From the NCBI GenBank assembly GCA_016297215.1, contig JAEDGZ010000007.1, forward strand, positions 1,312 to 65,311: 64,000 nt of DNA. Direction: 5' to 3'. The DNA is from Paludibacteraceae bacterium (GTDB lineage: Bacteria; Bacteroidota; Bacteroidia; Bacteroidales; Paludibacteraceae). The notes under the pieces are model-generated. The model was not told the DNA's origin, did no database searches, and saw nothing but the letters and a program-made list of their open reading frames with translations. Made by a program: the position numbers and the translations under genes. Shown in pieces: positions 341 to 63,918 of this stretch (positions within the stretch are counted from its first letter, which is position 1; each line of letters opens with the position of its first letter).

Positions 341-3300
341 ATGAACTTTACGCATTTGCATGTACACTCGCACTATTCGATGCTGGACGGTATGTCGAAA
401 GTGCCGGAAATAGTAGAGAAATGCCTCCGCTGCGGGATGAACGCCGTGGCGCTGACCGACCACGGGAACATGTACGGCATCAAGGAGTTGCTGGACTATT
501 GCAAGAAAGTGAACGGCAGGCTGAAAGAGGCGGCGGGCGATGGCGCGTTCGTGCCCTTCAAGCCGATAGCGGGCTGCGAGTGTTACTGCGCGCGGCGCGG
601 GCGACACTCCATGACCGATGAGAAAGCCATGAACGGCGAGGGACGCGAGTATATCATCGACCGCTCCGGCTGGCACCTCATCCTGCTGGCGAAGAACAAA
701 GTGGGCTACCACAACCTCTGCCACATCGTGAGCGAGAGTTTCATGGACGATGCCTACAACTACACCGCGCGTATTGACCGCGAGTTGCTGGAGAAATACC
801 ACGAGGGGTTGATATGCTCGTCGGCATGCCTCGGCGGGGAGTTGCCGCAGAAAATCATGGCAGGCGACATGGCAGGCGCGGAGGAGACCATCGAGTGGTT
901 CAAGGGCGTGTTCGGCGAGGACTATTACATTGAGATTCAGCGTCATCAGACCGACAAGCCGCGAGCCGACCAAGTGGTGTATCAGCGGCAGAAAGAGGTG
1001 AACCCCATCCTGATAGACTTGGCGAAGAAGCACGGTGTGAAGGTGATTGCGACCAACGACGCGCACTTCGTGAACGAAGAGAACGGCGAGGCGCACGACC
1101 GTCTGATTTGTCTGAGCACGAACCACTACGTGGACGAAGAAGACCGCATGCACTACACCAAGCAGGAGTGGGTGAAGACGCCCGAGGAGATGGAAGCCAT
1201 CTTCGGCGACATCCCCGAGGCGCTGACGAACACGCAGGAGATAGTGGACAAGGTGGAGATTTACGACATCGACTCAGGTCCTATCATGCCTAACTTCCCC
1301 ATCCCCGAGGAGTTCGGCACCGAGGAGAGTTATCGCGAGAAGTTCACCCCCGAGGACCTGTTCAACGAGTTCACGCGCAACGAGCACGGCGAGGTGGTGT
1401 TGAGCCAAGAGGAGGCGGAGAAGAAGGTGAAGAAATTAGGCGGCTACGACAAACTCTACCGAATCAAGTTGGAGGCGGATTACCTTGCCTACCTTGCCTA
1501 CAAAGGGGCGCACGAGCGCTACGGCGAGGAGTTGACCGAGGAGCAGAAAGAGCGCATTCTCTTTGAGTTGCATATCATGAAGACGATGGGTTTCCCCGGG
1601 TACTTCCTGATAGTGATGGACTTCATCCGCGCGGCGCGCGAGGAGTTGGGCGTGAGCGTGGGTCCCGGGCGCGGTAGCGCGGCGGGCAGCGTGGTTGCCT
1701 ACTGTCTGCACATCACCGACCTTGACCCGCTGAAGTACGACCTGCTGTTCGAGCGTTTCCTCAACCCCGACCGTATCTCGCTGCCGGATATAGACACCGA
1801 CTTCGACGATGTGGGGCGTCCGAAGGTCATCGACTGGGTGACGGAGCGCTACGGCAAGACGCATGTGGCGCATATCGTAACCTACGGCAAGATGGCGACC
1901 AAGAGCGCGATAGCCGACGTGGGGCGCGTGCAGCGACTGCCGTTGGCGAAGGTGGCAGAACTGAAATCGTATATCCCCGACCGCAATTTTCCCGACAACA
2001 TCAAGGACGAGAAAGGCAAGAGCCCAAAAGTGAACTTGAAGAACTGCTACAAGTACGTGGACGAGTTGAAGCACGAGTTCGAGATGGGCGAGCCGAATGT
2101 GCGGGAGGTGCTGGAGTACGCCAAGCAGTTGGAGGACACCAATCGGCAGGTAGGTATCCACGCCTGCGGCATCATCATCGGCGCGGACGACCTGACGAAG
2201 TTCGCACCCCTCTCGAGCGTGTATGACCCGAAGTTGAAGAAGCGCGTGCTCGTAACCCAATACGACGGGCACGTGGTGGAGAGCGTGGGGCTTATCAAGA
2301 TGGACTTCCTCGGGCTTATCACGCTGAATATCATCAAGGAATGTATCAAGAATGTCAAGAAGCGCACGGGCGAGGTGGTGGACATTGACCATATCCCCAT
2401 CGACGACGCGCTGACCTACAAACTCTTCCAAGAAGGGCAGACGACGGGCGTCTTCCAGTTTGAGTCGGCAGGCATGCGCAAGTACATGAAGGAGTTGCAG
2501 CCGACGGTCATAGGCGACATCATCGCGATGAACGCGCTCTACCGCCCGGGACCGATGGACTACATCCCGCAGTTCATCCGCCGCAAGCAGGGCTTGGAGC
2601 CCGTTACCTACGACATCCCCGTGATGGAGAAATACCTGAAAGACACCTACGGCGTTACGGTCTATCAGGAACAGGTCATGCTCCTCTCGCGTCTGCTGGC
2701 GAACTTCACCCGCGGCGAGAGCGACAAACTGCGTAAGGCGATGGGTAAGAAGCAGATGGCGATACTGCAAGAGTTGAAGGGCAAGTTCATGGCAGGCGGC
2801 AAAGCCAACGGACACGATGAGAAGGTGTTGGAGAAGATTTGGAGCGACTGGGAGAAGTTCGCCTCGTATGCGTTCAACAAGTCGCACGCTGCCTGCTACT
2901 CGTGGGTAGCCTACCAGACGGCATACCTCAAAGCGCACTACCCCGCGGAGTTCCTCGCCGCCAACCTCACCGTATCGAAAGACAACATCAAGGAGGTAAC
3001 GAAGTTCATGGACGAGTGCAAGGAGATGCGCATACAGGTGCTGGAGCCCGATGTGAACGAGTCGGAGATGAACTTCACCGTCAACGACCAAGGCAACATC
3101 CGCTTCGGCTTGGGCGGCATCAAGGGCGTGGGCGAAGGTGCCGTGGAAGCCATCATCTCGGAGCGCGAGAAGAACGGTAAGTTCAAAGACATCTTCGACT
3201 TCCTCGAGCGTGTGAACCTGCAAGCCTGCAACCGCAAGACGGTGGAGAACCTCGCGCTGGCGGGGGCGTTCGACTGCTTCGACGGGCTCTACCGCGAGCA

Positions 3301-4291
3301 GTTGCTCGGGCTGAACAGCAAGGGCGAGAGCGTGCTGGAGACCCTGATGCGCTACGGCACCCTCTTCCAGCAAGATAAGCAGTTGCAGCAGAACTCGCTC
3401 TTCGGCGACATGGGCGACATGGGCGTGGCGGTGCAGCACCCCGAGATACCGCAGTCTCCGCGCTGGTCGGCTATCGAGCGGCTGAACATCGAGAAATCGC
3501 TCATTGGCATCTTCCTCTCCGCCCACCCGCTGGATGAGTACGAATACGAGGTGCGCGAGATGTGCGACATCACCGCCGCCGAACTGACCCTCTTCGACGG
3601 CTGGCGCACGCCCGAAGCCCGCGCCGCTGCCGCCAAGAATAGCGAAACCTCTGATAACTCCGAAGATTCCGAGAACTCCGATAACTCCGATTTCTCCGAT
3701 GACTCCGAAGAGAAACCCCGTATCACCCCCGAGGCCTTCCTCGCGAAGTACAAGAACAAAACGCTGCACTTCGGCGGTATCGTAACGAGCGCAGAGGTGG
3801 CGACTTCGAAGAAAGGGAATATCTACGGGCGCTATGTGGTGGAAGACTACACGGGTAGTTACCGGATGACCCTCTTCGGGGAGAACTACAAACGACTCTC
3901 GCCGATGTTGCAACCCAATGTGTATGTGTATATCACGGGCACCATCGCCCAGCGCGGTGCGGGCATGCGCTGGTTCAAAGAGCAGGCGGACGAACAGGCG
4001 GAGTTTGAACTGAATATCACCAACGTAGAGTTGCTCAATGAGGTGCAAGACCTCTATGGCAAGGGGCTGACGCTCCGTATCTCGCTGCCGAACTTGGACA
4101 ACGAGCTGATAGAGGAACTGAACGACCAATGCAAAGCCCACCCGGGCAAAGGGCAACTCCACATCCAGATAGCCGACCCCATACACAACTACCTCATCCA
4201 CATGACCTCCAAAAGCCGCTACATCCGCATCACCACCGACTTCTACCGCTGGCTCCAGATGCAAGAAAAGATACAAATAGTGAACGAATAA
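341..4291 (+). CDS. dnaE: DNA polymerase III alpha subunit
   Basis: 1316-aa ORF with an N-terminal PHP domain (MNFTHLHVHSHYSMLDG). Pol III alpha core motifs are present (GPGRGSAAGSVVAYCLHITDLDP, LPDIDTDF, NKSHAACYS), followed by a C-terminal OB fold. Confidence 0.97.
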   Translation: MNFTHLHVHSHYSMLDGMSKVPEIVEKCLRCGMNAVALTDHGNMYGIKELLDYCKKVNGRLKEAAGDGAFVPFKPIAGCECYCARRGRHSMTDEKAMNGEGREYIIDRSGWHLILLAKNKVGYHNLCHIVSESFMDDAYNYTARIDRELLEKYHEGLICSSACLGGELPQKIMAGDMAGAEETIEWFKGVFGEDYYIEIQRHQTDKPRADQVVYQRQKEVNPILIDLAKKHGVKVIATNDAHFVNEENGEAHDRLICLSTNHYVDEEDRMHYTKQEWVKTPEEMEAIFGDIPEALTNTQEIVDKVEIYDIDSGPIMPNFPIPEEFGTEESYREKFTPEDLFNEFTRNEHGEVVLSQEEAEKKVKKLGGYDKLYRIKLEADYLAYLAYKGAHERYGEELTEEQKERILFELHIMKTMGFPGYFLIVMDFIRAAREELGVSVGPGRGSAAGSVVAYCLHITDLDPLKYDLLFERFLNPDRISLPDIDTDFDDVGRPKVIDWVTERYGKTHVAHIVTYGKMATKSAIADVGRVQRLPLAKVAELKSYIPDRNFPDNIKDEKGKSPKVNLKNCYKYVDELKHEFEMGEPNVREVLEYAKQLEDTNRQVGIHACGIIIGADDLTKFAPLSSVYDPKLKKRVLVTQYDGHVVESVGLIKMDFLGLITLNIIKECIKNVKKRTGEVVDIDHIPIDDALTYKLFQEGQTTGVFQFESAGMRKYMKELQPTVIGDIIAMNALYRPGPMDYIPQFIRRKQGLEPVTYDIPVMEKYLKDTYGVTVYQEQVMLLSRLLANFTRGESDKLRKAMGKKQMAILQELKGKFMAGGKANGHDEKVLEKIWSDWEKFASYAFNKSHAACYSWVAYQTAYLKAHYPAEFLAANLTVSKDNIKEVTKFMDECKEMRIQVLEPDVNESEMNFTVNDQGNIRFGLGGIKGVGEGAVEAIISEREKNGKFKDIFDFLERVNLQACNRKTVENLALAGAFDCFDGLYREQLLGLNSKGESVLETLMRYGTLFQQDKQLQQNSLFGDMGDMGVAVQHPEIPQSPRWSAIERLNIEKSLIGIFLSAHPLDEYEYEVREMCDITAAELTLFDGWRTPEARAAAAKNSETSDNSEDSENSDNSDFSDDSEEKPRITPEAFLAKYKNKTLHFGGIVTSAEVATSKKGNIYGRYVVEDYTGSYRMTLFGENYKRLSPMLQPNVYVYITGTIAQRGAGMRWFKEQADEQAEFELNITNVELLNEVQDLYGKGLTLRISLPNLDNELIEELNDQCKAHPGKGQLHIQIADPIHNYLIHMTSKSRYIRITTDFYRWLQMQEKIQIVNE
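3653..3712 (+). repeat. 9-nt tandem array (GAnnAnTCC x6) in frame inside dnaE
   Basis: The DNA reads gataactcc gaagattcc gagaactcc gataactcc gatttctcc gatgactcc and encodes DNSEDSENSDNSDFSDDS. The unit is one mismatch from the reverse complement of the intergenic array cggagtaat at 49402-49426. Confidence 0.9.
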
Positions 4292-4304: not shown

Positions 4305-4779
4305 CTTGAAACATATAATTGTGCGGCTTACTCTAACATATAATTATCGTGTAATTATTCATGTAATTAACATGAGTTCGATATAAGATTTTTAGTCTTG
4401 ATTTTCTTTTGATTTCTGAGCGTAGCGAAACAAATAGACAATCGCTCATCCTATTTTAGAAAGGATTTTTAGTAAGATTATGGACTATATTTTCTGATGT
4501 GTTTCCTTAAAATCACTGCAAAAAATAACGCAAAAATCTTTACTGATAATAGTAGTGAGTGATAATTTTATGCCCTTTCGCTTCGCTCAGAAATCCATAT
4601 AAAATCAAATAGAAAATCTTTTGGTAAAATATATCTTATACGTCGTATCTTATTTCGAACTCACGTTAACTATAAATCACAATGAAAAAATTAATGAATA
4701 ATTACACGGCAATTACATGTTAAAAAAGCAAATGATAGTTATATGTTAAGAAGTATAACACGATAGTTATATGTTCAAG
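4305..4779. repeat. Long AT-rich imperfect palindrome (foldback element) between dnaE and folC
   Basis: The left arm 4305-4387 (cttgaaacatataattgtgcgg..aacatataattatcgtgtaattattcatgtaattaacatgagttcgatataag) pairs with the right arm 4649-4779. Nested inner arms also pair: 4383-4428 (aagatttttagtcttgattttcttttgatttctgagcgtagcgaaa) with ~4576-4620, and atcgctcatcctatt with aatagtagtgagtgat. Confidence 0.85.
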
Positions 4780-4805: not shown

Positions 4806-6500
4806 ATGTCTTACGAACAAACCCTCCAATACCTCTACGCCTCACAGCCGGCGTTTCATATAGTGGGCAGTAGCGCCTACAAGCCCGGGCTGGAGAACAC
4901 GCGCCGTCTGATGGCGCACCTCGGCAACCCGCATGAGCGGTTTGCCTCTGTTCATATCGCCGGCACCAACGGCAAAGGCAGCACGTCCCACCTCATCGCC
5001 GCGAGCCTGCAATGTGCGGGATACCGCGTCGGGCTCTACACCAGTCCGCACCTTGTGGACTACCGCGAGCGTATCCGTATCAACGGCGCGATGATTCCCA
5101 AGGAGGAGGTGGTGCGCTTTGTGGAGGATAACCGCGCGTTCCTCGAGGAGGTCAAACCCTCTTTCTTCGAGACCACGATGGCGCTCGCGTTCTGGTATTT
5201 CGCCCAAGAGCAAGTGGACATCGCCGTGGTGGAATGCGGTTTGGGCGGCAGGCTCGACTCCACGAACATCATCACGCCCATCCTGTCGGTCATCACGAAC
5301 ATCGGCTTCGACCACACGGAGTTCTTGGGCGACACGCTGGCGAAGATAGCCTACGAGAAGTCGGGTATCATCAAGCCCGGCGTGCCTTGCGTCATCGGCG
5401 AGACCGACCCCGAGACCATGCCCGTCTTCCTCGCCAAAGCCAAGGAATGCGGTATCTTGGGCGAGGGTTTGGAGACCACCGACTGCCGTATCTGGTTTGC
5501 CGACCAATGCGGCTACCTGCGCCGCAAGCGCCAACGCGACATCCCCGACTGCCAACTCCACGGCATCTACCAAGAGAAGAACATCCAAACCGCCTACGTA
5601 GCCCTTAGCGCATTGCAACAGACCCTCTCTAACTCCCCCTTAAGAGCACCCCAAAAATCAAAGATTTTTCGGGGACCCCGCAAGGGGGAGAACCTAACTG
5701 GGGACGCCCCGACCGTGTCGCGGGCGGTAATAAACACGGAGCGAAGCGGAGTTCTTAACACGAAGTTCCCAACACGAAGTTCCCAACACAAAGTTCTTAA
5801 CACGAAGTCCATTGCCCTCGCTTTCTCCCAAGTCTGCACGCTGACGGGTCTTCGCGGGCGTTGGGAGACGGTGCGCGAGCACCCGCTCACCATCTGCGAC
5901 ACGGGGCACAACGCGCATGGTATCAAGTACGTGGCGGAGCAGTTGGAGCAGATGATGCCGCACTACCGCAATACGCGTATCATCTTCGGCATGGTGGCGG
6001 ATAAGGACATCAGCGAGGTGGTGAAACTCCTCCCCGCCAATGCCATCTACTACTTCACCCAACCCAACAACCACCGCGCCTTCCCCGCCGAGAAACTGAA
6101 GAGGATGTTTGAGGATGAAGGATTAAGGACACAGGATAAAAGACAAAATAGTATATCGGATGAAAGATTAAGGATAAAGGATGAAAGACTAAATAGTTCT
6201 GCAAACGAACTCCCCCGCCCCGCTTGCGGGGAGGGGGCAGGGGGCGGGGCAACCTCCGAGACGCAGGTAACTAATTTATCCCCCTCCCTTTTCGGGGTCC
6301 CCACAAGCAACGCGCAGTGGGGTGGCTTCAGGGAGGGACGGGGTGGGTCTTCTTTCCCCACCATAGACGAAGCCCTCGCCGCCGCCTTCGCGGAAGCCTC
6401 GCCCGACGACCTTATCTTCATCGGCGGCAGCAACTACGTAGTAGGTGCCGCCCTCCAATCTCCCTACCTCACTGCCCCGCTGACCTCACCGAAAGAGTAG
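4806..6500 (+). CDS. folC: Folylpolyglutamate synthase / dihydrofolate synthase, carrying two large repeat-derived inserts
   Basis: 564-aa ORF with the Mur-ligase P-loop HIAGTNGKGSTSH, VVECGLGGRLDSTN and NIGFDHTEFLG, plus C-domain GLRGRWE..DTGHNAHG and a terminal LIFIGGSNYVVG. It is roughly 120-140 aa longer than my expectation for FolC because of the inserts at about 5625-5825 and 6111-6360. Confidence 0.9.
   Translation: MSYEQTLQYLYASQPAFHIVGSSAYKPGLENTRRLMAHLGNPHERFASVHIAGTNGKGSTSHLIAASLQCAGYRVGLYTSPHLVDYRERIRINGAMIPKEEVVRFVEDNRAFLEEVKPSFFETTMALAFWYFAQEQVDIAVVECGLGGRLDSTNIITPILSVITNIGFDHTEFLGDTLAKIAYEKSGIIKPGVPCVIGETDPETMPVFLAKAKECGILGEGLETTDCRIWFADQCGYLRRKRQRDIPDCQLHGIYQEKNIQTAYVALSALQQTLSNSPLRAPQKSKIFRGPRKGENLTGDAPTVSRAVINTERSGVLNTKFPTRSSQHKVLNTKSIALAFSQVCTLTGLRGRWETVREHPLTICDTGHNAHGIKYVAEQLEQMMPHYRNTRIIFGMVADKDISEVVKLLPANAIYYFTQPNNHRAFPAEKLKRMFEDEGLRTQDKRQNSISDERLRIKDERLNSSANELPRPACGEGAGGGATSETQVTNLSPSLFGVPTSNAQWGGFREGRGGSSFPTIDEALAAAFAEASPDDLIFIGGSNYVVGAALQSPYLTAPLTSPKE
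5631..5690 (+). repeat. ~60-nt GC-hairpin element, copy 1 (inside folC)
   Basis: The sequence aactcccccttaagagcaccccaaaaatcaaagatttttcggggaccccgcaagggggag is near-identical to 47941-48003. The outer stem is ctccccct/agggggag and the centre is the palindrome cggggaccccg. Confidence 0.9.
5750..5810 (+). repeat. Alternating heptamer array (agttcyy aacacra) x4, inside folC
   Basis: The array reads agttctt aacacga agttccc aacacga agttccc aacacaa agttctt aacacga agtcc. The 14-nt period is not a multiple of 3, yet the folC frame stays open. Confidence 0.9.
6111..6193 (+). repeat. GGATRAA heptamer-type array inside folC
   Basis: The array reads gaggatgaaggattaaggacacaggataaaagac...ggatgaaagattaaggataaaggatgaaagac. 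The same word family occurs in intergenic leaders at 36892-36925 and 58890-58934. Confidence 0.85.
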
Positions 6501-6777
6501 TCCAAAAAACAACTTAAAAACAGTATGATTATTAAGATTATCTCTCAACACTAAACACTCTACTCTCAACGAGAAATCACCAACGAACTACCTAAGAACT
6601 ACCAAGGAACTACCCACCAACTCCCCACCACCAAAAATATACGATTATTAAGATTTACTAGGGCACGCGGGCATCTCCTCCGCGGTAAAGTGTCTGGGTA
6701 CGCAGGTTCTGTCCGGGTACGCCCCAGTTTATCCCGACAAGTCGGGAACCCGTCGGGGCTAAATAATCCTAAAAACC

Positions 6778-6855
6778 ACTATAACAGCTATACCAACTAT
6801 AACCTCTATAACAACTATAATAACTATAGAGCCTATAGCAACTATACCAACTACC
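6778..6855. repeat. 9-nt tandem array (actataaca-like x9) in the folC-downstream non-coding region
   Basis: The units are actataaca gctatacca actataacc tctataaca actataata actatagag cctatagca actatacca. They lie within a 6.5-7.05 kb stretch made almost entirely of low-complexity arrays; further examples are at 6543-6633 and the 11-mers at 6917-6949. Confidence 0.85.
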
Positions 6856-7088
6856 ATTCCAACAAACACCTTCCCCCACCATAGTAGGAAGGCGAAACTA
6901 AACCAGACAAAGAAAAGAGCAGACAAGGAGCAGACAAAGAGCAGAGAAGAAGCCGAGACCCACCCCCTCTCCGTCAGTAATTCCCCACCACGCCTCATCA
7001 AACAGAAACAAAGCACCCCCAAAACCTGTTTTTCAACCCAAAATGTCATTTTCTCGTCCTATAATTTGCACATATCGGGAAAAAGCAG

Positions 7089-7096
7089 TAATTTTG
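7089..7096 (+). promoter_or_regulatory. Bacteroidetes -7 box TAATTTTG
   Basis: This is an exact match to the TAnnTTTG consensus of sigma-AB promoters. The nearest downstream + strand CDS is 320 nt away. Confidence 0.35.
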
Positions 7097-7102
7097 CCCC
7101 GC

Positions 7103-7312
7103 AGTTGATTAGTTGGGAGTACATATTTTAATAAAAGCGTTATAAGCCGAACTTGATTTTCTGAAAACTGGACACTTTTAGAAAATTGCTCAAGCACAAG
7201 CCTATGCGCTCACGCCGCAAGGCGTGGGCTTTTGTGCATACATTTGAGCAATTTAGGTAGTCCAGAACCTCAGAAAATCAGATGAAGCGAAACGAAAGTT
7301 CACGCTTTTTTT
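7103..7312 (+). ncRNA. Candidate structured small RNA or long leader (hypothetical)
   Basis: The -7 box at 7089-7096 is followed by a ~125-nt imperfect hairpin: arms 7154-7205 and 7230-7280, apical hairpin cacgcc-gcaa-ggcgtg at 7211-7226. A terminator-like gcgaaac-gaaa-gttcacgc plus T7 follows at 7287-7312. No family was recognised. Confidence 0.2.
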
Positions 7313-7417
7313 GTATGTATATATCATAAACATTGTGGACAAATGTTTTAGACTAATTACTAATTGCGAGTGCCCATAGCAGCCAAAAGTTGTGCCCGAC
7401 ACGAAATAGGGTAAACA

Positions 7418-7717
7418 ATGATGTATAAACTTAGATACAATGAAGATGGCTTTGAGAATTTTGTTTCTCAATTAATCAACTCATCTTATCTTGAGCAGAT
7501 AGAGAGTGGCATCGCAAAATGTATGTTGGATAATGGTTACAATAAACTCAGTCCAAAACAAAAAAATGTTTTTAATAGGATGATAAACAAGTATTCAACT
7601 GAGTATTGCAAACAATGTGCTGCTCCTATTCCTTGGACAGAGATGTATGAAGCATACGAAAATGGCGGTTATTGCAGTGTTTGCGAGCACACTATACAAA
7701 AAATTATGAATCAATAA
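7418..7717 (+). CDS. Hypothetical small protein with a C-terminal CxxC..CxxC zinc-ribbon
   Basis: 99-aa ORF in an AT-rich islet with CKQC(x26)CSVC near the C-terminus. It ends 13 nt before the LRR gene. I recognised no homology. Confidence 0.45.
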   Translation: MMYKLRYNEDGFENFVSQLINSSYLEQIESGIAKCMLDNGYNKLSPKQKNVFNRMINKYSTEYCKQCAAPIPWTEMYEAYENGGYCSVCEHTIQKIMNQ

Positions 7718-7730
7718 ATATTTTAATATT

Positions 7731-10178
7731 ATGAAAACGAAAATTATTCTTTTGCTTGCGTCCATCAGCATCGTTAACAATGTTTTAGCTTTTGAATTCA
7801 AATTAGATGGTCTAATATATAGAGCTCTTTCTAATACGCAAACGTATGTTACAGTTTACGGAGACACAAAATGCTCTGTTATAACTATCCCAGAAACAGT
7901 TACATATAATGGAAGAGAATACAATGTTACTGCAATCGGAGCTGGTGCATTCAAAGATTTCTCTTCCCTTACATCCATCACTATTCCAAAAACTATAAAA
8001 TCAATCGGAGATGGTGCATTCAATGGTTGTACTAACCTCACTAAAACCAATTTTACAGGCGATATAGCAGATTGGTGTACCATACATTTTACGCCTTCCT
8101 ATGCGGCAAGCGAACACAAATCTAATCCTATCTACTACTCGCATAACCTTTACATCAACGATGTTGAAATAACAGATTTGGTAATTCCTGACTCAGTAAT
8201 ATGCATTGAAGAATGCGCCTTCTGCAAATGCAGTTCTCTCACTTCCGTTTTTATTTCCAACTCAGTAACGCGCATCGGAAGCCAGGCATTTAGAGATTGC
8301 TCATCGCTTTCCCATATTACCATTGGTAGTTCTGTGAAAAGCATTGAAGGTAACGCTTTTTTGGGCTGTACGGCCCTCACTAAAACCAATTATATAGGTG
8401 ACATAGCAAACTGGTGTGCCATACAATTTGGCTTGAGAGATTCTAATCCTATCTACTATTCACAAAATCTGTATATTAAAGATGTAGAGGTTAATGTTCT
8501 AATAATTCCTTCACCTGCAACATGCATTAAACAGTATGCTTTTGTAAATTGTTTATCTCTCTCCTCCGTCAACATTGCAAACTCTGTAATGACCATTGAA
8601 CGTTATGCGTTCGAAGGTTGCTCTTCTATCACCTCTGCTACAATTCCAAATTCCGTAATCAGTATTGGGGACGAAGCGTTTTACAATGTTCCGAATATCA
8701 TTTATAGTGGAACAGCCACTGGAACGCCATGGGGAGCTAGAAGTGTAAATGGATATGTTGAGAAGTATTTCGTATATGAAAGCGAAGCTAAAACCCAATT
8801 ATTGGCATGTAGTTCTGCAGCAAAAGGAAACATAACTATTGCCAACTCCGTAACAAACATTGGAAAATATGCATTCAATGATTGTGCATCAATCACTTCC
8901 ATCACTATTCCCAATTCTGTAATAAACATAGACGACTACGCATTTACAAACTGCCCGGGGCTCACATCCATCACCTTGCCAAACTCCGTAACAAACATTG
9001 GAGGTTGTATATTTGAGAACTGCTTAAATTTGAGTTCTGTAATAATCGGAGGTGATTCTATGATGAATATTAGTCCTTATGCTTTCGATTATTGCAAAGC
9101 CATAACATCCATTACATGGGATATCAAAAACCATAAAGGAGGATGGACTACAGGAGGTACTGTGTATGATAAAAATTATAAAGATTTTTCTCCTTTCTAT
9201 AAGATACGTGATCAAATTACTTCTTTTGTCTTTGGAAACAATGTAGAAGATATTCCTGCATGTCTTTGTTGCGGTTTAGATAGCCTTACTTCTGTTACAA
9301 TTTCTAACTCTGTAAAAAATATCGGATATGATGCTTTTTATGACTGTCGGAGTTTAACTTCTATTACACTGCCTAATTCCATAAAATATATTGGAACGGG
9401 AGCATTTGAGCACTGCGTAGAACTGAACTCCATTAACATCCCAAATTCGGTAACAGGGATAGCAAATTATGCTTTTAGTAGTTGTTATTCTCTCACATCT
9501 ATCAACATTGGTAACTCTGTAACATGGATTGGAGATTACGCTTTTGATGGTTGTTCTTCTCTTTCCGATGTCACCATCGGTGAGTCTATTAAAGTCATTG
9601 GATCATTTGCTTTTGCCGGTTGTTTTGCAATTACCAAAACTAATTACACCGGCGACATAGCAGATTGGTGTATGATACAATTTTCAAATAACATTAGTAA
9701 TCCTATCTATTATTCACATAATTTGTATATTAAAGATGTAGAAATAAATGATTTAGAAATTCCCAACTCTGTTAAGAAGATTGGTGAATATGCATTCTAT
9801 AATTGTTATAGCCTTAGAACTATAACCATCCCACATTCTGTAACAAGAATTATGAGTTCTGCTTTCTATTCGTGCAAAGCAATATCAGATGTATATTGCA
9901 AAGCAATGACCCCTCCTGAATGTGCTCCCTATTGTTTCGACTACATTCCTACAGACTGCAAACTTCATGTCCCTTTGGGAACTAAAACTGCTTACCAAAC
10001 TAAATATGGTTGGAAACAATTCTATCATATCTTTGAAGAAGACTTTACTAATTTGTTGCCTGAGACGCATGTATCTTCACCCTTCAGCACCACCATTCGA
10101 AAAGTACTCTACAATGGACAAATATTTATACAAAAAGGAAATAACAAGACTTACACTGTAACGGGAATAGAATTATAA
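7731..10178 (+). CDS. BspA-like leucine-rich-repeat surface protein, probable T9SS cargo
   Basis: 815 aa with signal peptide MKTKIILLLASISIVNNVLA. It has many LRR_5-type units (SLTSITIPNSVTxIGxxAFxxC). Three near-identical blocks NYTGDIADWCxIQF..SNPIYYSHNLYIxDVEI are present, and the C-terminal tail is KVLYNGQIFIQKGNNKTYTVTGIEL. Confidence 0.85.
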   Translation: MKTKIILLLASISIVNNVLAFEFKLDGLIYRALSNTQTYVTVYGDTKCSVITIPETVTYNGREYNVTAIGAGAFKDFSSLTSITIPKTIKSIGDGAFNGCTNLTKTNFTGDIADWCTIHFTPSYAASEHKSNPIYYSHNLYINDVEITDLVIPDSVICIEECAFCKCSSLTSVFISNSVTRIGSQAFRDCSSLSHITIGSSVKSIEGNAFLGCTALTKTNYIGDIANWCAIQFGLRDSNPIYYSQNLYIKDVEVNVLIIPSPATCIKQYAFVNCLSLSSVNIANSVMTIERYAFEGCSSITSATIPNSVISIGDEAFYNVPNIIYSGTATGTPWGARSVNGYVEKYFVYESEAKTQLLACSSAAKGNITIANSVTNIGKYAFNDCASITSITIPNSVINIDDYAFTNCPGLTSITLPNSVTNIGGCIFENCLNLSSVIIGGDSMMNISPYAFDYCKAITSITWDIKNHKGGWTTGGTVYDKNYKDFSPFYKIRDQITSFVFGNNVEDIPACLCCGLDSLTSVTISNSVKNIGYDAFYDCRSLTSITLPNSIKYIGTGAFEHCVELNSINIPNSVTGIANYAFSSCYSLTSINIGNSVTWIGDYAFDGCSSLSDVTIGESIKVIGSFAFAGCFAITKTNYTGDIADWCMIQFSNNISNPIYYSHNLYIKDVEINDLEIPNSVKKIGEYAFYNCYSLRTITIPHSVTRIMSSAFYSCKAISDVYCKAMTPPECAPYCFDYIPTDCKLHVPLGTKTAYQTKYGWKQFYHIFEEDFTNLLPETHVSSPFSTTIRKVLYNGQIFIQKGNNKTYTVTGIEL

Positions 10179-18508: not shown

Positions 18509-18790
18509 AACTACTCTTTCCCTCTGGAACATATAATTATCGTGTAATTATTCGTACAATTTTGCAACGAAAAATTAATGGTTAATTACATGATAATTAT
18601 ATGTTAAAAGAACTACTCTTTCCCTCTGGAACATATAATTATCGTGTAATTATTCGTATAATTTTGCAACGAAAAATTAATGGTTAATTATACGATAATT
18701 ATATGTTAAAAGATAATGGCAATTAACGGAGAAAACTCAACGAAAAATTAATGGTTAATTACACGATAATTATATGTTAAAAGATAACAG
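18509..18790. repeat. Tandem array of AT-rich hairpin elements (2 full 102-bp units plus a partial third)
   Basis: Unit 18509-18610 is aactactctttccctctggaacatataattatcgtgtaattattcgtacaattttgcaacgaaaaattaatggttaattacatgataattatatgttaaaag. It is repeated at 18611-18712, and a third right arm lies at 18740-18782. Each unit folds (aacatataattatcgtgtaatta / taattacatgataattatatgtt). Confidence 0.9.
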
Positions 18791-18806
18791 CAATTAACGG
18801 AGAACG

Positions 18807-20723: not shown

Positions 20724-20754
20724 ATTGTAATAGTGTATAGTTCTAAATCCGCCG

Positions 20755-25259: not shown

Positions 25260-25581
25260 GTGAACTCGAAATAAGATTTATACACAAAAATAAACAATAA
25301 TACTTGACAAAAACGAACAAAAACTCTTTTACTCAACAAATATTTTCAAATATTGTTCAAATAGGTTTTCTATAACATATAATTGTCATATAATTAATCA
25401 TCAATTCATTACCAAAAATCAAATTAGTCTTTGACTGCTGAAGTAACTCGCTTATATCGAGCTCACGTAATGTAGTACAACTTGTATATCATTACCATAA
25501 AAAATGTGTTGAACTGTCGGTGCAGTTCAACACATATCGTGTCAAGCATTCTTGAAACATGTAATTGTCGTTGCATTAATC
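25260..25581. repeat. Mosaic copy of the AT-rich foldback element family
   Basis: Segment 25260-25279 (gtgaactcgaaataagattt) is inverted relative to 25451-25467 (cttatatcgagctcacg). Segment 25374-25401 is aacatataattgtcatataattaatcat. Segment 25551-25581 (cttgaaacatgtaattgtcgttgcattaatc) matches the start of the 4305 element. Confidence 0.75.
25499..25533 (-). terminator. Rho-independent terminator of ddh (duplicate of the 20867 module)
   Basis: The stem gtgttgaactg / cagttcaacac is followed on the minus strand by tttttt. Confidence 0.8.
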
Positions 25582-25585
25582 TTTC

Positions 25586-26491
25586 TTACACCAATGCCTT
25601 GATGTTCTCTTCGGTGGTGCCGGGGAGGAGGTCGATGGGCGCGAGTTCTATCATCGTGAAGCAACCGCACTGCCCGCGTTGCTGCATGCGCACTGCGGCG
25701 CGGGCACAAGCCACGAGAATCTGACCGGTGAGCGCGGGGTTGTTGATGGTCATGTTGAACTCGAAATTCTGGTTGTGCATATTCGCCGACACGCCGTTGC
25801 GCACGAGGTGCACGCCATGCGCCACGTTGTTGAGCGCCTCCACCGAGGGCACCTCTATCACATGCGTCTCGTCGTGGGCGAAGTAATCATCGCGCAGCAG
25901 GTTGTGCTCCACGGTGTGGAAGTCCGCACCGTCCTCCAACTCTACATACACCATGCGGCGGTGGATACCCGTGCCCAACGGGATGGTCATCGACAGCGCG
26001 TTCTTCACTCCTTTGATACTCTTCGCCGCCACGGTGTGCCCCATGGAGCGCCCGGGACCGAAGTTGGTGTAGGTCAGCCCCTGCGGCGCCATTGCCAGCA
26101 GCAACGCGCGTACCACGGAGTCGCTCCCCGGGTCCCATCCCGCGGCGATGATGCTCACCGACTGCTGTTCGCGAGTCAGCGGCAGCAACTGCGCACGGTA
26201 GTCCAAAATCTGCCCGTGTATATCAAACGAATCGACCGTGCATATTCCTCTCGCAGCCAACTGCTTGGCAAACGCCGGCACCTCGCGCGTGGGCGTACAA
26301 AGCACGCACACATCGGCATCCAACAATTGTTGAACGGAGGATTGCCGGGTGCTGCCTGGAGACAGCACCTCCATGATTATCGAATCGGTATGGTGAAACA
26401 CTCCCGCGAGGGTCATATCTTCGGCAGCAAGCACCGCCTGCTCCACGGCTTTGCCGATATTGCCGTAACCAATAATTGCAACCTTTGTCAT
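25586..26491 (-). CDS. ddh: meso-Diaminopimelate D-dehydrogenase
   Basis: 301 aa with Rossmann start MTKVAIIGYGNIGK. Length and the internal GWDPGSDS-type segment fit the Ddh found in Bacteroidales. Confidence 0.75.
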   Translation of the reverse strand: MTKVAIIGYGNIGKAVEQAVLAAEDMTLAGVFHHTDSIIMEVLSPGSTRQSSVQQLLDADVCVLCTPTREVPAFAKQLAARGICTVDSFDIHGQILDYRAQLLPLTREQQSVSIIAAGWDPGSDSVVRALLLAMAPQGLTYTNFGPGRSMGHTVAAKSIKGVKNALSMTIPLGTGIHRRMVYVELEDGADFHTVEHNLLRDDYFAHDETHVIEVPSVEALNNVAHGVHLVRNGVSANMHNQNFEFNMTINNPALTGQILVACARAAVRMQQRGQCGCFTMIELAPIDLLPGTTEENIKALV

Positions 26492-32435: not shown

Positions 32436-32777
32436 CAATTTTTCTTTCAAATATGCAAAAAATATACAAGTTTTTTTTTTCAACATTTTTGGGGCATTTA
32501 TATAGGACTTGACTCCAAACACTTACGGGGCGACATAACTAAATGATGTTAATTTATCACCTTTGCGGCTGTTGCCGAGCGTACCATCCCGCCCCCTGTC
32601 CTCGATGTCCACCGGACATCGCTTCACCCCTCCTTTCAGGAGAGGCGGGGGAGTTTGGCTGCGCACACCGAACTCTCAACTCTCAAAACTGAACCCTCAA
32701 CTATGGGGAGGGGTAAAAGAGCTTGACACTCTTTTTTGCAGCGGAGGTTTTCTTCATTTTGTTCGATATAGGCAGCT

Positions 32778-36891: not shown

Positions 36892-36925
36892 AGGATTTTA
36901 GATAAAGGATTAAGGATGAAAGACT
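36892..36925. repeat. GGATDAA heptamer array in the GH32-GH32 intercistronic gap
   Basis: The sequence aggattttagataaaggattaaggatgaaagactc directly abuts the ATG at 36889. Confidence 0.85.
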
Positions 36926-46333: not shown

Positions 46334-48034
46334 TTACTTCCCTCTTGTGGCGGGGGTAGTGCCGAAGAACTCGCGGTAGCACTTCGAGAAATAAGACGGA
46401 GAGGTGAAACCCACGGAATAAGCGACCTGCTGGATAGTCAGGTCGGTATTGAGCAACATCTGCTTTGCCTTACGCAAACGAATATGGCGTATTAACTCCA
46501 CGGGAGAGACTCCCATCAAGGATTTGGTTTTTCGGAAGAGTTGTGCGCGGCTCATGCTCAACTCGTCGCTCAGCGCTTCTACATTGAACTCGGAATCATC
46601 CAAGTGGCGCTCTATCGTATTCTGCAGTTGCTCCACGAAGCGTTCGTCCACCGACTGTTCGGATTTCGTGCGCTCCAGCGCCGCGGTCATGTCCTCCAAC
46701 TGCTTTTGTTGCTGCGCCACTATGCGCGCACTCTCTTCCCGCTCGCGCTGCACACGCAACGAGTACTGATAGACCCGAAAGAGCACCACCGCCAAGACCA
46801 CGAGCAGCAGCAAGAAAGAGACTAACAAGATTAGGGCAATACGCTGGGCGCGTGCTGTATCCCACAAGCGTTTGAAACGACTTTCCAATTCATTGGAGAC
46901 TGCCACCTGTCGGTCTATCTCCTCGGCAATCTGCTGCAAGGGGAGTGCCGCATCGCGGTCTATCAACAGCGTCGGCAGACGCACGATACGCTCATAGGGT
47001 TCGCCATGCAGTATCTTCACCGCCGTCTGTATCACCAAATCGCCGCGACTGGGATAGGTAGCAGTCATGTCTATCTCGCCTTTGAGCAACGCCTCCACGC
47101 CACCGCCCTTGCCGACGATGCCGTCCACGCCCATTATTTTGGGGGCATCTAAATCTCCCTTAAAGGGAGACTTAGAGGTGGCGGCATCGGTTTGCTTACT
47201 GTTAGAGGCTAAAATATTCCCCCTTCCCATGCGGTTTTTGCAGGCTTCGTAAGCACCTATTGCCATCGGGTCGTTCTGCGCTATAATGGCGTCTATTTGC
47301 GGGTAGAGAGATAATAACGAGTCGGTCACCACTCTGGCATTCTCGCGGAACCATGCTCCGCAGGCAGCCCCCACTATCTGCACCTCGGGGTGTTCTTGCA
47401 GGCTGTCCATCATGCCTTTGTGCCGCCACACCATCGGCGTGGAGCCGGGCAAGCCTTGTATTTCCAAGACGCGCAAGGGACGTCCTTCGGGTACGATAGA
47501 GAGCAACCACTGCGCCATGAGTTGCCCCACTGCGTAGTTGTCCCCACCGATGAAAGCCGTCCATTTCTCGCCCGATACCTGCCTGTCCGCCACTATCACG
47601 GGAATCCCCGCGTCGTAGGCGCGGCTCACGGCAGGCTTCACCTCTTCCGCCTCATTGGGAGATACAATGAGCAAATCGACTCGCTCTGCTATGAAAGAGT
47701 CGATTTGCTGACACTGAATCTCACTGTTGTCGCTCGCCTGACGAATATGCAGGGTTAAGTCGGGATGGAATATCAGTTCCTGCTCCATCTCCTTGTGCAT
47801 ACGCATACGCCACGCGTCATCCGAACATTGGCTCACGCCAATGATATACTGCGGAGACGGCTTCGGCGCAGAGCACCCCATCAGGCATGCTACGAGGCAG
47901 GCACAAAGAAGACCCACCCCTGCCCTACATGACCCCCTCCAACTCCCCCTACGAGAGCACCAAAAAAAACAGAGATTTTTCGGGGACCCCGCAAGGGGGA
48001 GAGAAAAATATACTCGTTTAGCGGTTGAGAGCAT
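46334..48034 (-). CDS. Membrane-anchored periplasmic sugar-binding / AraC-HTH one-component regulator (start uncertain: 48034 or 48100)
   Basis: A type I periplasmic binding domain (IGVSQCSDDAW..LIVSPNE..VIVADR..IIAQNDPMA) is followed by one TM helix (IALILLVSFLLLLVVLAVVLF). About 45 aa of coiled coil and an AraC HTH (..QVAYSVGFTSPSYFSKCYREFFG) complete it. No HisKA, HATPase or receiver motifs are present. Confidence 0.8.
   Translation of the reverse strand: MLSTAKRVYFSLPLAGSPKNLCFFWCSRRGSWRGSCRAGVGLLCACLVACLMGCSAPKPSPQYIIGVSQCSDDAWRMRMHKEMEQELIFHPDLTLHIRQASDNSEIQCQQIDSFIAERVDLLIVSPNEAEEVKPAVSRAYDAGIPVIVADRQVSGEKWTAFIGGDNYAVGQLMAQWLLSIVPEGRPLRVLEIQGLPGSTPMVWRHKGMMDSLQEHPEVQIVGAACGAWFRENARVVTDSLLSLYPQIDAIIAQNDPMAIGAYEACKNRMGRGNILASNSKQTDAATSKSPFKGDLDAPKIMGVDGIVGKGGGVEALLKGEIDMTATYPSRGDLVIQTAVKILHGEPYERIVRLPTLLIDRDAALPLQQIAEEIDRQVAVSNELESRFKRLWDTARAQRIALILLVSFLLLLVVLAVVLFRVYQYSLRVQREREESARIVAQQQKQLEDMTAALERTKSEQSVDERFVEQLQNTIERHLDDSEFNVEALSDELSMSRAQLFRKTKSLMGVSPVELIRHIRLRKAKQMLLNTDLTIQQVAYSVGFTSPSYFSKCYREFFGTTPATRGK
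47941..48003 (+). repeat. ~60-nt GC-hairpin element, copy 2
   Basis: The sequence aactccccctacgagagcaccaaaaaaaacagagatttttcggggaccccgcaagggggagag has the same orientation as copy 1 at 5631-5690. Confidence 0.9.
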
Positions 48035-48058
48035 TTGAAACTTGAAACTTTTTACAAA

Positions 48059-48085
48059 GCGGGCGAGACGCCCGCGCACCCGGAC
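48059..48085 (+). repeat. REP-like hairpin
   Basis: The sequence is gcgggcgagacgcccgcgcacccggac. Confidence 0.9.
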
Positions 48086-48099
48086 AAAAGACCTTACCA

Positions 48100-49371
48100 T
48101 TATTCCGTCGGGATGTCTTTATTGACGTTCTTGCTGCCTACCAGTGCATACCAGAGGATATACGCAAGCCCTGCCACCGGCACGATATACGAGAACAGGT
48201 AGGAAGTGTGGTCTGCCAAAAGGTTCTGGAAGAAAGGCAGGATACCGCCGCCGCATACCAGCGCCATGAAGATACCGCTCGCTGCCGGCGTGTATTTACC
48301 CAAGCCCTCGGCGGAGAGGTTGAAGATACTACCCCACATCACGCTCGTACACAGACCGCAGCAGAACATCATAATCATGCTAATAGGCAATTCCATACCC
48401 TTGAAGGTAATCACCCACGTCTCGGGGAAGAACATCACGCAGAGCAACAGCACGATACCTACACCTGCCGCCACCGACAGCATCGCCTTGCTGCTCACCT
48501 TGCCGCCAACAACGCCACCCAAGAGACGACCGCACATCATCATCAGCCAGTAGAAGCCAATCACCGTACCCGCGATAGCAGGACCTACGGCAGGGGTGCC
48601 GGACATATAGAGGTTAGCCGTGTTGGGAATACCTACCTCCACACCTACATAGCAGAAGATAGCCACCGCACCCAGCACGAAATGGCGGAACGACAGCGGA
48701 CTGTACTTATCCGCATTCTTATCCTCTTTAAGCGCGGCAGCCCTGCGTTGCTCAGGAGTTTCGATATGCGGCTCGGGAATCTTGGTGAGGGCAATAATAA
48801 CAAACGCCACCAAGAAGATAGCCATAGCAATCAACATCGCAGGTGCCGCATCGCCTACGCTGGCTTTCGCTGCCTCGCCACCGATGAGGTAACCCAAGAG
48901 GATAGGTGCGATAGTGCCGCCGATGGAGTTCATAGACCCACCGAACTGCACCAGTTGGTTACCGCGCTTGCCGCCACCGCCAAGGGTATTGAGCATGGGG
49001 TTCACCACCACGTTGAGCAAGCACATACTCATACCGGCAATGAAAGCACCCAACACATACACACCGAAACTCTCCGCAGGCCCGCTCAACCACTGGATAC
49101 CTACGCCCACAAAACCTACGGCTGCCGCCAGCAGGGAGGTGAATTTATAGCCTTTGCGTTTGAGGATGACACCCGCGGGCACACCCAAGACGGCGTACGC
49201 AATGAAGTTAGCCAAGGTACCCAGTTGCGACATGGCGTTGCTGGCTCCAAACTGATTTTTCACAATGACGCCCATCGAACCCGCAAAGTTCGTAACAAAG
49301 GCTATCATAAAGAAAAGGAGGAACATCACCGCGATGGGGAGGATGTTGCGATTAGTTGATTGTTTTGTCAT
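48100..49371 (-). CDS. MFS sugar:H+ symporter (FucP / glucose-galactose transporter family)
   Basis: 423 aa and 12 TM, with N-terminus MTKQSTNRNILPIAVMFLLFFMIAFVTNF typical of FucP-like permeases. Confidence 0.85.
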   Translation of the reverse strand: MTKQSTNRNILPIAVMFLLFFMIAFVTNFAGSMGVIVKNQFGASNAMSQLGTLANFIAYAVLGVPAGVILKRKGYKFTSLLAAAVGFVGVGIQWLSGPAESFGVYVLGAFIAGMSMCLLNVVVNPMLNTLGGGGKRGNQLVQFGGSMNSIGGTIAPILLGYLIGGEAAKASVGDAAPAMLIAMAIFLVAFVIIALTKIPEPHIETPEQRRAAALKEDKNADKYSPLSFRHFVLGAVAIFCYVGVEVGIPNTANLYMSGTPAVGPAIAGTVIGFYWLMMMCGRLLGGVVGGKVSSKAMLSVAAGVGIVLLLCVMFFPETWVITFKGMELPISMIMMFCCGLCTSVMWGSIFNLSAEGLGKYTPAASGIFMALVCGGGILPFFQNLLADHTSYLFSYIVPVAGLAYILWYALVGSKNVNKDIPTE

Positions 49372-49426: not shown

Positions 49427-49477
49427 GGCGCAAACTTCCCCACTTGCTGAGACCTGACACATGAAACTTCTAACACC

Positions 49478-49502
49478 GCAGGCGAGACGCCTGCGTCCCC
49501 AG
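49478..49502 (+). repeat. REP-like hairpin
   Basis: The sequence gcaggcgagacgcctgcgtccccag is identical to 53562-53586 and 63048-63072. Confidence 0.95.
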
Positions 49503-49509
49503 TGATTTC

Positions 49510-55278: not shown

Positions 55279-55359
55279 AAACATATAATTATCGTTAATT
55301 ATTCATATAATTTACACACCGATGCTCCTCAATAACTGCAATTATGGCAAATTACATGT
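55279..55359. repeat. AT-rich hairpin element (ACATATAATTATCG family) downstream of rlmH
   Basis: The sequence aacatataattatcgttaattattcat ... aataactgcaattatggcaaattacatgt forms imperfect inverted arms. Confidence 0.75.
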
Positions 55360-58861: not shown

Positions 58862-59123
58862 ATTGTGTTAGTTATTAGATTTTACTTTTGGATGAAAGAC
58901 CGCTCGCTGAAGGATAAAAGATGAAAGACGGATTAGCATCGGCTCTGATTAATGTTCATCATAACGAATAGCATTCTTACCTTACATCCCATATTCTCGA
59001 AGCTAGGGGAGGCCTAACTCAAAATCGGATGCAAATTTACTGCTTTTTTCTGAATAATACAAACATTTCATGCTTTTTTTGTGATTTTTTCTTGTTTTCG
59101 TTGGAAAATCCGCAAAAAAGCAC

Positions 59124-62953: not shown

Positions 62954-63047
62954 GGGGAAATTTGACAATTTACTATTTGACAAATAACACCGCCGTATTA
63001 CACTTTTTGCTCACAAAAACAAACTATAATCACGTTTCTAACTTTCC

Positions 63048-63126
63048 GCAGGCGAGACGCCTGCGTCCCCAGTAGTTCGTTATCTGCTTTATCTTATGGT
63101 GCAGCCTGGAGACCGCACCTCCTTGG
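63048..63126 (+). repeat. REP-like hairpin pair
   Basis: The pair is gcaggcgagacgcctgcgtccccag (63048-63072) and ggtgcagcctggagaccgcacctccttgg (63098-63126). The same two modules occur in the 32963-33127 cluster. Confidence 0.9.
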
Positions 63127-63854: not shown

Positions 63855-63918
63855 GCAGGCGAGATGTCTGCGTCCCCGGTACTTTGTTTTAGCAGGCGGG
63901 GACGCCTACGCACCCGGG
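63855..63918 (+). repeat. Two REP-like hairpins
   Basis: The two copies are gcaggcgagatgtctgcgtccccgg (63855-63879) and gcaggcggggacgcctacgcacccggg (63892-63918). Confidence 0.9.

Follow-up and report, generated by a model that had tools for sequence, protein, structure and literature searches.

How does a stretch of short repeats come to lie in frame within a normally essential gene, and what becomes of it there? This question is raised by folC (4806-6500, plus strand; 564 aa), the gene for folylpolyglutamate/dihydrofolate synthase in a 64,000-nucleotide stretch of contig JAEDGZ010000007.1 from a Paludibacteraceae bacterium. The whole stretch is referred to as the window, and positions are those of the window unless another locus is named. 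The gene is host to two segments of repetitive make-up, insert 1 and insert 2. The second (6111-6359, plus strand) comprises 83 in-frame codons and had been singled out in a preliminary description of the sequence. We consider it probable (about 0.75) that insert 2 is built from hairpin repeats that are dispersed and specific to the lineage, that this mosaic is translated as part of a structurally permissive surface loop of FolC, and that it is selfish in nature and tolerated by its host.

The identity of the host gene was established by several approaches. The open reading frame (ORF) 4806-6500 carries Mur_ligase_M and Mur_ligase_C domains according to Pfam, and its translation contains the P-loop motif HIAGTNGKGST (GTNGKGS). 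Sequence matches in the PDB were folylpolyglutamate synthase (FPGS)/FolC entries (1o5z, 1fgs, and 1w78), and the best Foldseek matches of the AlphaFold model were likewise all FPGS/FolC (1o5z, 3pyz, and 1w78). Domains, P-loop, and fold all assigned the protein to the FolC/FPGS family.

Insert 2 is real. The translation of 6111-6359 (aa 436-518) is exactly the peptide quoted in the preliminary description, with the C-domain helix ...AEKLKRMF on one side of it and the strand FPTI on the other. A protein search resolved FolC into two length classes: close relatives have 455-590 aa, and proteins of ~64% identity and below have 426-448 aa. The shorter homologues showed an alignment gap exactly at insert 2, confirming that the segment is an insertion relative to them. 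Two sites of the alignment were hypervariable (site 1, ~5625-5811; site 2, 6111-6359), and the remainder was nearly invariant. When one genome per GTDB species was scanned, long folC genes were confined to a small sub-clade. No protein-level conservation of the insert is seen in distant FolC: it is missing in >70 other Paludibacteraceae/Bacteroidales species, whose genes are of ordinary length, and it is hypervariable in close relatives. Neither the sense frame nor one of the antisense frames contains a stop codon. Shuffles of the 249 nucleotides (nt) were stop-free in 1.8% (mononucleotide) or 2.7% (dinucleotide) of cases, before the 1-in-3 requirement on length is applied, so that chance alone would leave a frame of such composition open in no more than ~2-3% of shuffles.

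Insert 2 is a mosaic that arose from several events, not from one insertion. Tandem Repeats Finder (TRF) detected a period-7 tandem array of 10.3 copies at 6112-6187. The single word GGATDAA was not enriched in the window (28 found versus 22 expected). The 17-nt, two-and-a-half-unit pattern GGATDAARGATDAAGGA (two mismatches at most) was found nine times versus 0.13 expected and was confined to 6113-6188, 36893-36923, and 58912-58928 within the window. TRF, the pattern count, and inverted repeats bore out the content of heptamers and G/C hairpins that had been noticed before. The heptamers had been taken for a microsatellite shared with the intergenic leaders at 36892-36925 and 58890-58934. Heptamer arrays are indeed present in the insert and in both leaders, but they are really the arm of a palindromic element of ~105 nt.

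The modules of insert 2, all given here in plus-strand orientation, begin with two left-arm units of this AT-rich element. Unit 1 (6113-6157; GGATGAA GGATTAA GGACACA GGATAAA AGAC AAAATAGT...) matches the consensus left arm, and unit 2 (6158-6202) is a tandem 45-nt duplicate that runs on into the loop of the element. The two units are identical at 36 of 45 positions. Unit 2 is 92-95% identical to the intergenic copies at 36900-36925 and 58910-58929, and the segment 6157-6270 shares 88-90% identity with composite copies at two related loci, one upstream of folC in L009 and one in the folC insert 1 of L010. Nested in the palindrome loop is a G/C-rich hairpin (6207-6250; CTCCCCCGCCCCGC TT GCGGGGAGGGGG, with the alternative pairing CCCCGCCCC/GGGGCGGGG) that encodes ELPRPACGEGAGGG and whose 12-nt arms (6212-6223 and 6226-6237) are 92% complementary. 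The hairpin occupies the same loop position in L009:4033, L010:4836, and L009:5580, plain copies of the palindrome without it exist as well, and a reverse-complement relative is located at 32627-32662 of the window. It is flanked by an AACT(Y)C repeat, which is suggestive only and does not define a target-site duplication.

The right part of the palindrome loop follows (6251-6281; ..CTCCGAGACGCAGGTAACTAATTTATCC, consensus TCAGAGACGAAGGTAATAAGTCC). The right arm, which consists of TCCTTCATCC repeats ('SPSSCVLHPSS'), is missing in insert 2 of the window and is replaced by a hairpin (6282-6337) with the perfectly complementary 8-nt arms CCCTCCCT (6282-6289) and AGGGAGGG (6330-6337). The preliminary description had mis-delimited this second hairpin as cccctcccttttcggggtcccc; the true stem CCCTCCCT...AGGGAGGG encloses as its loop a nested module of 40 nt (6290-6329; TTTCGGGGTCCCC...GGGGTGGCTTC). 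The nested module belongs to the same family as an invertible segment of insert 1, and kin of it were found at 5633-5690, 47954-48001, and L016:5190-5235. In relatives, the CCCTCCCT/AGGGAGGG stem is closed by the 4-nt loop CCCTCCCTTTGTAGGGAGGG and encodes 'SPSLCREGRGGSS'. The tail module AGGGAGGGACGGGGTGGGTCTTCTTTCCCC ('REGRGGSSFP'; 6330-6359) closes insert 2. A reverse-complement copy of it is present at 47905-47944 (78% over 40 nt, 16 nt exact), and the tail peptide module also occurs in the gltD-like protein P0123 and in an ORF of L092. The idea that insert 2 of the window forms one large hairpin was dropped: with its right arm absent, the insert taken as a whole is no more stably folded than shuffled sequence (z = -0.12). 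Structure is confined to sub-hairpins and to complete copies located elsewhere.

The consensus of the palindromic element was derived from an alignment of its copies, and the insert DNA of nine relatives was compared. The element has the structure GGATGAAGGATTAAGGATAAAGGATGAAAGACTAAATAGT - TCGACTCTGAAAnnTCAGAGACGAAGGTAAT - AAGTCCTTCATCCTTCATCCTTCATCC and is read in frame as DEGLRIKDERLNS..SETSETNVISPSSCVLHPSS. Its arms are arrays of the heptamers GGATNAA and TTNATCC that pair over at least 15 bp, and the loop is itself palindromic. The minimal, ancestral-looking form of insert 2 (L008, L005, and L010) is this palindromic element, and even the most distant relative that bears an insert already has it at site 2. 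When complete, as in L005, the element folded far better than shuffles (z = -4.5).

More than 15 copies of the palindromic element were found across the window, the loci of relatives, and metagenome contigs. Modules of the folC inserts, taken from the window as well as from relatives, match about a dozen other places in the window. These include a match downstream of folC (6723-6757), matches in the intergenic region at 32.4-33.1 kb, and further ones at 49475-49504, 63046-63124, and 63891-63917. Partial heptamer-arm copies, both in plus orientation, lie in the 5' leader of a minus-strand GH32 gene (36893-36923; module match 36900-36925) and upstream of a minus-strand TonB_C gene (58890-58934; module match 58910-58929). 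A composite of tail module, hairpin module, short tandem repeats, and a module resembling repetitive extragenic palindromes (REP) was located at 47905-48076, the 5' end of the regulator ORF 46334-48100. Insert modules were also seen in the flanks of the relatives' loci.

A metagenome scan with a 24-nt arm pattern returned seven contigs with five intergenic copies and two copies in frame. One of the latter lies in a Peripla_BP_2 lipoprotein between signal peptide and domain, the other in the inter-domain linker of a GltD-like oxidoreductase. Relatives of this oxidoreductase (89-99% identical) carry different modules of the same families at the same two linker sites; since the linker is variable in all of them, neither an empty site at the nucleotide level nor a target-site duplication could be defined for this gene. 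A peptide search among 1.8 billion representatives gave six hits, which point to new host genes but do not amount to a census; clustering at 50% identity hides insert-bearing variants. Among the hits were an HsdR_N-like protein and one further protein that contain the composite, including its nested 'ELPRPACGEGAGGG' hairpin. The in-frame hosts are accordingly folC (two sites), the GltD-like oxidoreductase (two linkers), the linker of the Peripla_BP_2 lipoprotein, the HsdR_N-like protein, and P0254; the palindromic element itself is in frame in at least four unrelated proteins besides folC. A match of 26-30 nt and 92-95% identity to the hairpin module GGAGGTGCGGTCTCCAGGCCGCACC was also noticed in a diaminopimelate dehydrogenase (DAPDH) gene (25586-26491, minus strand), where 26347-26376 encodes EVLSPGSTRQ. 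The protein has no extra residues compared with solved DAPDH structures, and the match was therefore not counted as an insertion; it is due to chance or to replacement.

The dispersal bears on the possibility that insert 2 grew purely locally, by microsatellite expansion and hairpin slippage and without any dispersed element. Local growth could explain the tandem structure of heptamers and 45-nt units, the exact ±7-nt length variants described below, and the lack of a transposase in the window. We regard it as quite unlikely nevertheless, because composites that are 88-98% identical over 50-136 nt recur in folC insert 1, in intergenic DNA not linked to it, and, in frame, in unrelated genes on other contigs. 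Slippage at one locus cannot account for several genes that share one and the same 100-nt palindrome, nested hairpin included.

Strain-level length polymorphism, proposed earlier as a check, was evident. Four kinds of change could be read directly from the sequences: tandem duplication with slippage, nesting of hairpin modules, inversion, and recombination. Among 35 closely related alleles, insert 2 had 15 different lengths (30-121 aa) and the insert-1 region had 20. The 45-nt unit is present twice in the window and four times in L009, and the number of heptamers varies. Hairpin modules are nested in the loops of other hairpins at up to three levels, as in L009, where TATCCCGACTTGTCGGGA sits in the G/C hairpin and this in turn in the palindrome. 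The left part of insert 2 (up to 6196) is ~96% identical to L002 and has no counterpart in L001. Conversely, the right part (from 6227) is ~95% identical to L001 and has no counterpart in L002 before 6352. The allele in the window is therefore a mosaic. At site 2 of a distant Paludibacteraceae species (L016:5160-5300), a hairpin module (GCGGGGTCCCCGAAAAC...TTTTGGGGTGCTCTT) is followed by tandem repeats that encode SPLAS, and an intergenic copy of the hairpin module lies 600 nt downstream of this site. Site 2 of L016 was thus invaded independently, by a related hairpin module and with a tandem repeat of another kind.

The companion, insert 1 (5625-5811, plus strand; ~62 codons), follows the last helix of the N-domain and also corresponds to an alignment gap. 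Its parts are a hairpin module (5625-5697), a REP-like module (5697-5729), and, at 5750-5808, tandem repeats of 14 nt detected by TRF. It shows 88-92% identity to 47931-48002, its RNA folds with a z value of -3.0, and its centre (aa 290-323) was modelled with a predicted local distance difference test (pLDDT) score of <50. Within it, the 58-nt plus-strand segment 5633-5690, bounded by CTCCCCC/GGGGGAG, is present as its exact reverse complement at L002:3822-3879 with identical flanks. What is flipped is an interior of 44 nt framed by inverted stems of 7 nt; neither orientation contains a stop, and the translations are LSNSPLRAPQKSKIFRGPRKGEN and LSNSPLRGPRKIFDFWGALKGEK. Small inversions flanked by short inverted repeats are best known from chloroplast DNA. 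The case of insert 1 resembles these hairpin-loop inversions in the exact flip of the interior between inverted stems among close relatives, but it differs in that the flip occurs in coding sequence and leaves both orientations open. The preliminary description had seen two independent in-frame invasions in folC. Both inserts are in frame; insert 2, however, is a nested recombinant mosaic of several events rather than a single invasion.

The conserved C-terminal motif of FolC was reached in frame in 32 of the 35 alleles. This count is little biased for site 2, because disrupted alleles would still be retrieved via the N-terminal 77% of the protein. In L097 (P0025; L097:1440-1470), exactly one heptamer is missing in the left arm (-7 nt), such that the protein ends with MKD and a stop while the intact C-terminus is encoded in another frame. 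In P0245, the right arm contains one more TTCATCC (+7 nt), and the C-terminus is read out of frame. In L096 (1440-1600), the right arm and more TTCATCC repeats are followed by an unrelated membrane-protein locus, and the last ~45 codons of folC are lost; this allele is probably a repeat-induced chimera, although it could be a deletion. Each of the three is found on a single contig within a cluster of otherwise full-length proteins. L097 and P0245 show either that heptamers do slip or that assembly goes wrong at this place; phase variation is not demonstrated by them.

These alleles invoke the idea of a contingency locus, in which heptamer tracts switch folC or its C-terminal part on and off in populations. 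The repeat unit is not a multiple of three, and two independent alleles, -7 in the left arm of L097 and +7 in the right arm of P0245, frameshift the C-terminus. We find this distinctly unlikely, since only two of 35 alleles are affected, each on one contig, and the tracts are short as well as imperfect. FolC is, moreover, normally essential, with a C-terminus under purifying selection. The data are accounted for just as well by an error of assembly or by a minority variant that is dead.

That insert 2 itself is an assembly artefact or part of a chimeric contig has next to no probability in our view. Repeats do break assemblies here: insert 1 is exactly where the contigs of the species representatives L028 and L036 stop, and in L096 the right arm is joined to another locus. 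However, independent assemblies, made with different assemblers from different samples, show the same junctions and segments at 95-98% identity, and the frame is intact on both sides.

The gene is neither split nor free of coding constraint. Both inserts lie in a single uninterrupted frame, and every complete locus had its N-terminal, middle, and C-terminal FolC motifs in one frame. The ratio of nonsynonymous to synonymous polymorphism (pN/pS), calculated against eight relatives, was 0.04-0.17 for the N-terminal part, 0-0.41 between the inserts, and 0-0.45 after insert 2. The low value after insert 2 shows that the downstream part is still constrained as protein. The five palindrome copies inside ORFs had no stop codon in the translated frame, whereas all five intergenic copies had 1-3 stops in the same frame. 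Openness is therefore imposed by selection on the genic copies and is not built into the family. The earlier proposal of selection for frame-preserving insertions was thus well founded, 32 of 35 alleles being in frame despite 15 lengths.

The same data speak to the possibility that insert 2 is not translated at all but spliced like an intron or bypassed by the ribosome. G/C clusters in Magnusiomyces mitochondria, the byp elements, are skipped by the ribosome (PMC8811140), and the G/C hairpins in the coding sequence of folC resemble them. Spliced or bypassed inserts need no open frame, yet the frame was kept in 32 of 35 alleles, in which the 15 lengths are all multiples of three and stop-free, and the in-ORF copies are devoid of the stops of intergenic copies. 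A scan of the whole window against Rfam identified only a tRNA and no RNA family, intron, or ribozyme over the insert. We consequently judge the untranslated state very unlikely. A promoter/terminator scan gave no sense-strand signal inside insert 2.

The AlphaFold model calculated with a 100-sequence alignment had a confident core and a mean pLDDT of 77.5; an earlier run on 32 close relatives (pLDDT 53) was too poor for use. Residues 437-464 (DEGLR...DERLN) were modelled as a continuation of helix 428-436 with pLDDT ~70, and residues 467-511 of insert 2 had values <50. In the predicted structure, the FolC fold is normal except that a helix is extended and followed by a disordered loop, and the predicted peptide spanning the junction is DEGLR...NSSANELPRPACGEGAGGGATSETQ. 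An intein, the acquisition of a domain, and a diversity-generating retroelement were rejected as origins: no matching domains were present, and the sequence is low in complexity, modular, and shared with non-coding DNA.

It might be argued that the insert is an adaptive protein segment, for example an interaction surface or a localization signal. Its first 28 residues are modelled as a charged helix extension (pLDDT ~70), and an insert persists at the site across a clade near synonymous saturation (pS ~0.5-0.7 versus L008). This would be extremely unlikely in our estimation, given that the insert differs throughout in sequence and length among strains whose cores are nearly identical, that the same modules occur in unrelated proteins and non-coding DNA, and that most of the insert is modelled at pLDDT <50.

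The founding piece of insert 2 is the ~105-nt AT-rich palindrome, the left arm of which is duplicated in the window and the right arm of which has been replaced by the CCCTCCCT/AGGGAGGG hairpin. Under the preferred reading of insert 2 as a translated mosaic of dispersed repeats, spread and turnover may have followed four routes: insertion of hairpin modules into hairpin loops; slippage of heptamers and 45-nt units; inversion of hairpin loops, through either template switching or recombination of the short stems with each other; and recombination among copies, homologous or ectopic. Every variant with a stop or a frameshift would be weeded out by selection, folC being essential, and the insert peptide itself would have no required function. 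A bolder proposal, which we put forward tentatively as possible but doubtful, is that a so far undescribed family of nested hairpins in uncultured gut Paludibacteraceae has a preference for single-stranded hairpin loops as insertion targets and thereby creates fixed 'cassette sites' in essential and other proteins, with peptides swapped between strains, and that the heptamer arms can switch a host gene by ±7 nt.

Several points weigh against the reading as a dispersed, translated, and tolerated repeat mosaic. No transposase domain was detected in any of the 37 ORFs of the window, nor any other enzyme that could mobilize the repeats. A pair of empty and filled sites at nucleotide resolution was not found in the searched sequences, in which the ends of the element are blurred by variable heptamer number. 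The copy counts cover the window, the relatives' loci, and metagenome contigs. Translation through insert 2 is inferred from frame conservation and pN/pS, and three of the 35 alleles are disrupted. Finally, all sequences are short-read metagenome assemblies, by which some of the fine structure could be affected.

Selfish palindromic repeats that lie in frame are known, and the elements of insert 2 are a new family of this kind, with an unusually clear record of nesting, inversion, and cassette exchange in an essential enzyme. A description of such elements in Paludibacteraceae or other Bacteroidales was not found in the literature searches made here. The closest parallel is provided by the Rickettsia palindromic elements (RPEs; Ogata et al. 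2000), which, as outlined in passages of PMC10969869 and PMC1166351, are palindromes of ~100-150 bp present both in intergenic regions and in frame in many unrelated housekeeping genes. The elements described here share this size range, the occurrence in intergenic regions and in frame in unrelated genes, and the placement at tolerated protein positions. They differ in host phylum, which is Bacteroidota rather than Alphaproteobacteria, and the likeness is one of description; because of the host lineage, sequence homology to RPE-1 to RPE-10 is not expected. In addition, every RPE family is said to code for a conserved peptide of its own, whereas the intergenic copies here (five of five) are not open in the translated frame. 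Arms made of heptamer arrays, nesting of elements, and turnover of inserts between strains instead of stable inheritance are further differences.

A second parallel is offered by the GC clusters of the yeast mitochondrial var1 gene (Hudspeth et al. 1984), which according to the summary in PMC8811140 lie in frame, cause strain-specific length polymorphism, and recombine and shuffle. Common features are short G/C-rich palindromic clusters in an AT-rich background, residence in frame in an essential gene, and length polymorphism. The var1 clusters belong to a eukaryotic organelle genome, however, and the likeness rests on description and not on shared sequence or mechanism.

REPs with GTAG or CGTC tags are mostly extragenic but sometimes lie in genes, where they encode 20-30 extra residues, and CGTC-type REPs have been reported from Bacteroidetes without a dedicated transposase (PMC3733652). 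The REP-like module CCGCAGGCGAGACGCCTGCGTCCCC has five copies in the window and an 8-bp stem with CGTC at the stem end. Mosaics of REPs, as in bacterial interspersed mosaic elements (BIMEs), also combine short hairpin repeats, some of them inside genes; the AT-rich heptamer palindrome exceeds a REP in length and differs from it in type. REPs mobilized by a REP-associated tyrosine transposase (RAYT) are hairpins of 20-40 bp with a GTAG or CGTC head; a RAYT gene was not seen in the window. The palindrome possesses the terminal inverted repeats of a miniature inverted-repeat transposable element (MITE), and a cognate transposase is not encoded in the window.

Colonization of housekeeping genes by in-frame palindromes has been documented mainly in Rickettsia and yeast mitochondria, and a report of a case from Bacteroidota was not found in the searches made. 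The many natural alleles of one essential enzyme, with 30-121 extra residues of changing sequence in the same two loops, constitute a natural experiment on insertion tolerance. They also inform on the birth of linker and loop sequences from non-coding repeats and on the spread of hairpin repeats by nesting, inversion, and slippage. On the practical side, such repeats break or mis-join metagenome assemblies inside genes and inflate or truncate gene calls.

Repeat modules were also observed elsewhere in the window. One copy of the REP-like module CCGCAGGCGAGACGCCTGCGTCCCC (53548-53595) lies in ORF 52538-53995 (plus strand), where it encodes LDRRRDACVPSE in the linker between the APH kinase and RapZ_C domains; the others are at 33070, 49464, 63034, and 63841. 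The regulator ORF 46334-48100 (minus strand) consists of a periplasmic-binding domain and an AraC helix-turn-helix domain, with a putative N-terminal extension of ~70 aa read through the repeat modules 47905-48076. The tail module encodes part of its lipoprotein-like signal 'RAGVGLLCACLVACLMGC', and a small hairpin (47148-47172) encodes KSPFKGDL inside its periplasmic-binding domain.

In the neighborhood of folC, dnaE (341-4291) contains a tandem repeat with a 9-nt period (3643-3714) that encodes the S/D/E/N-rich sequence SETSDNSEDSENSDNSDFSDDSEE. Since DnaE of relatives differs in length (1314-1363 aa), dnaE may carry a variable repeat insert of its own. The ~900 nt 3' of folC (6500-7400) contain no convincing gene but tandem 11-mers (6579-6630), tandem 9-mers (6774-6853), and hairpin modules (6660-6760); at this position, relatives carry cREC_REC/PDDEXK_4, DUF6088/AbiEii, or phage genes. 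A separate family of dispersed AT-rich repeats, with AACATATAATTATCGTGTAATTATTC and the complementary sequence, occurs as inverted pairs in intergenic regions (4334-4368, 4686-4779, 18528-18804, 25374-25407, and 55280-55313). It is present on both sides of the dnaE-folC spacer, and similar sequence was found in L096.

A conserved motif of ~35-50 nt (..TGCAAAGGTAC..T-rich..ATATGCAA; families D7/D13) was located at 20742, 25091, 26508, 32415, 46109, 51547, 59019, and 63645, in each case immediately 5' of a gene on the minus strand. Its sequence on the strand of the gene is TTGCATAT...GTACCTTTGCA, which contains a TAnnTTTG-like box as in the -7 region of Bacteroidetes promoters. Two islands (7418-10178 and 59141-61976) have a GC content at third codon positions (GC3) of 0.30-0.39 versus ~0.7 elsewhere. 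One harbors a BspA-type leucine-rich-repeat protein and the other polysaccharide-synthesis genes, and both islands were likely acquired horizontally.

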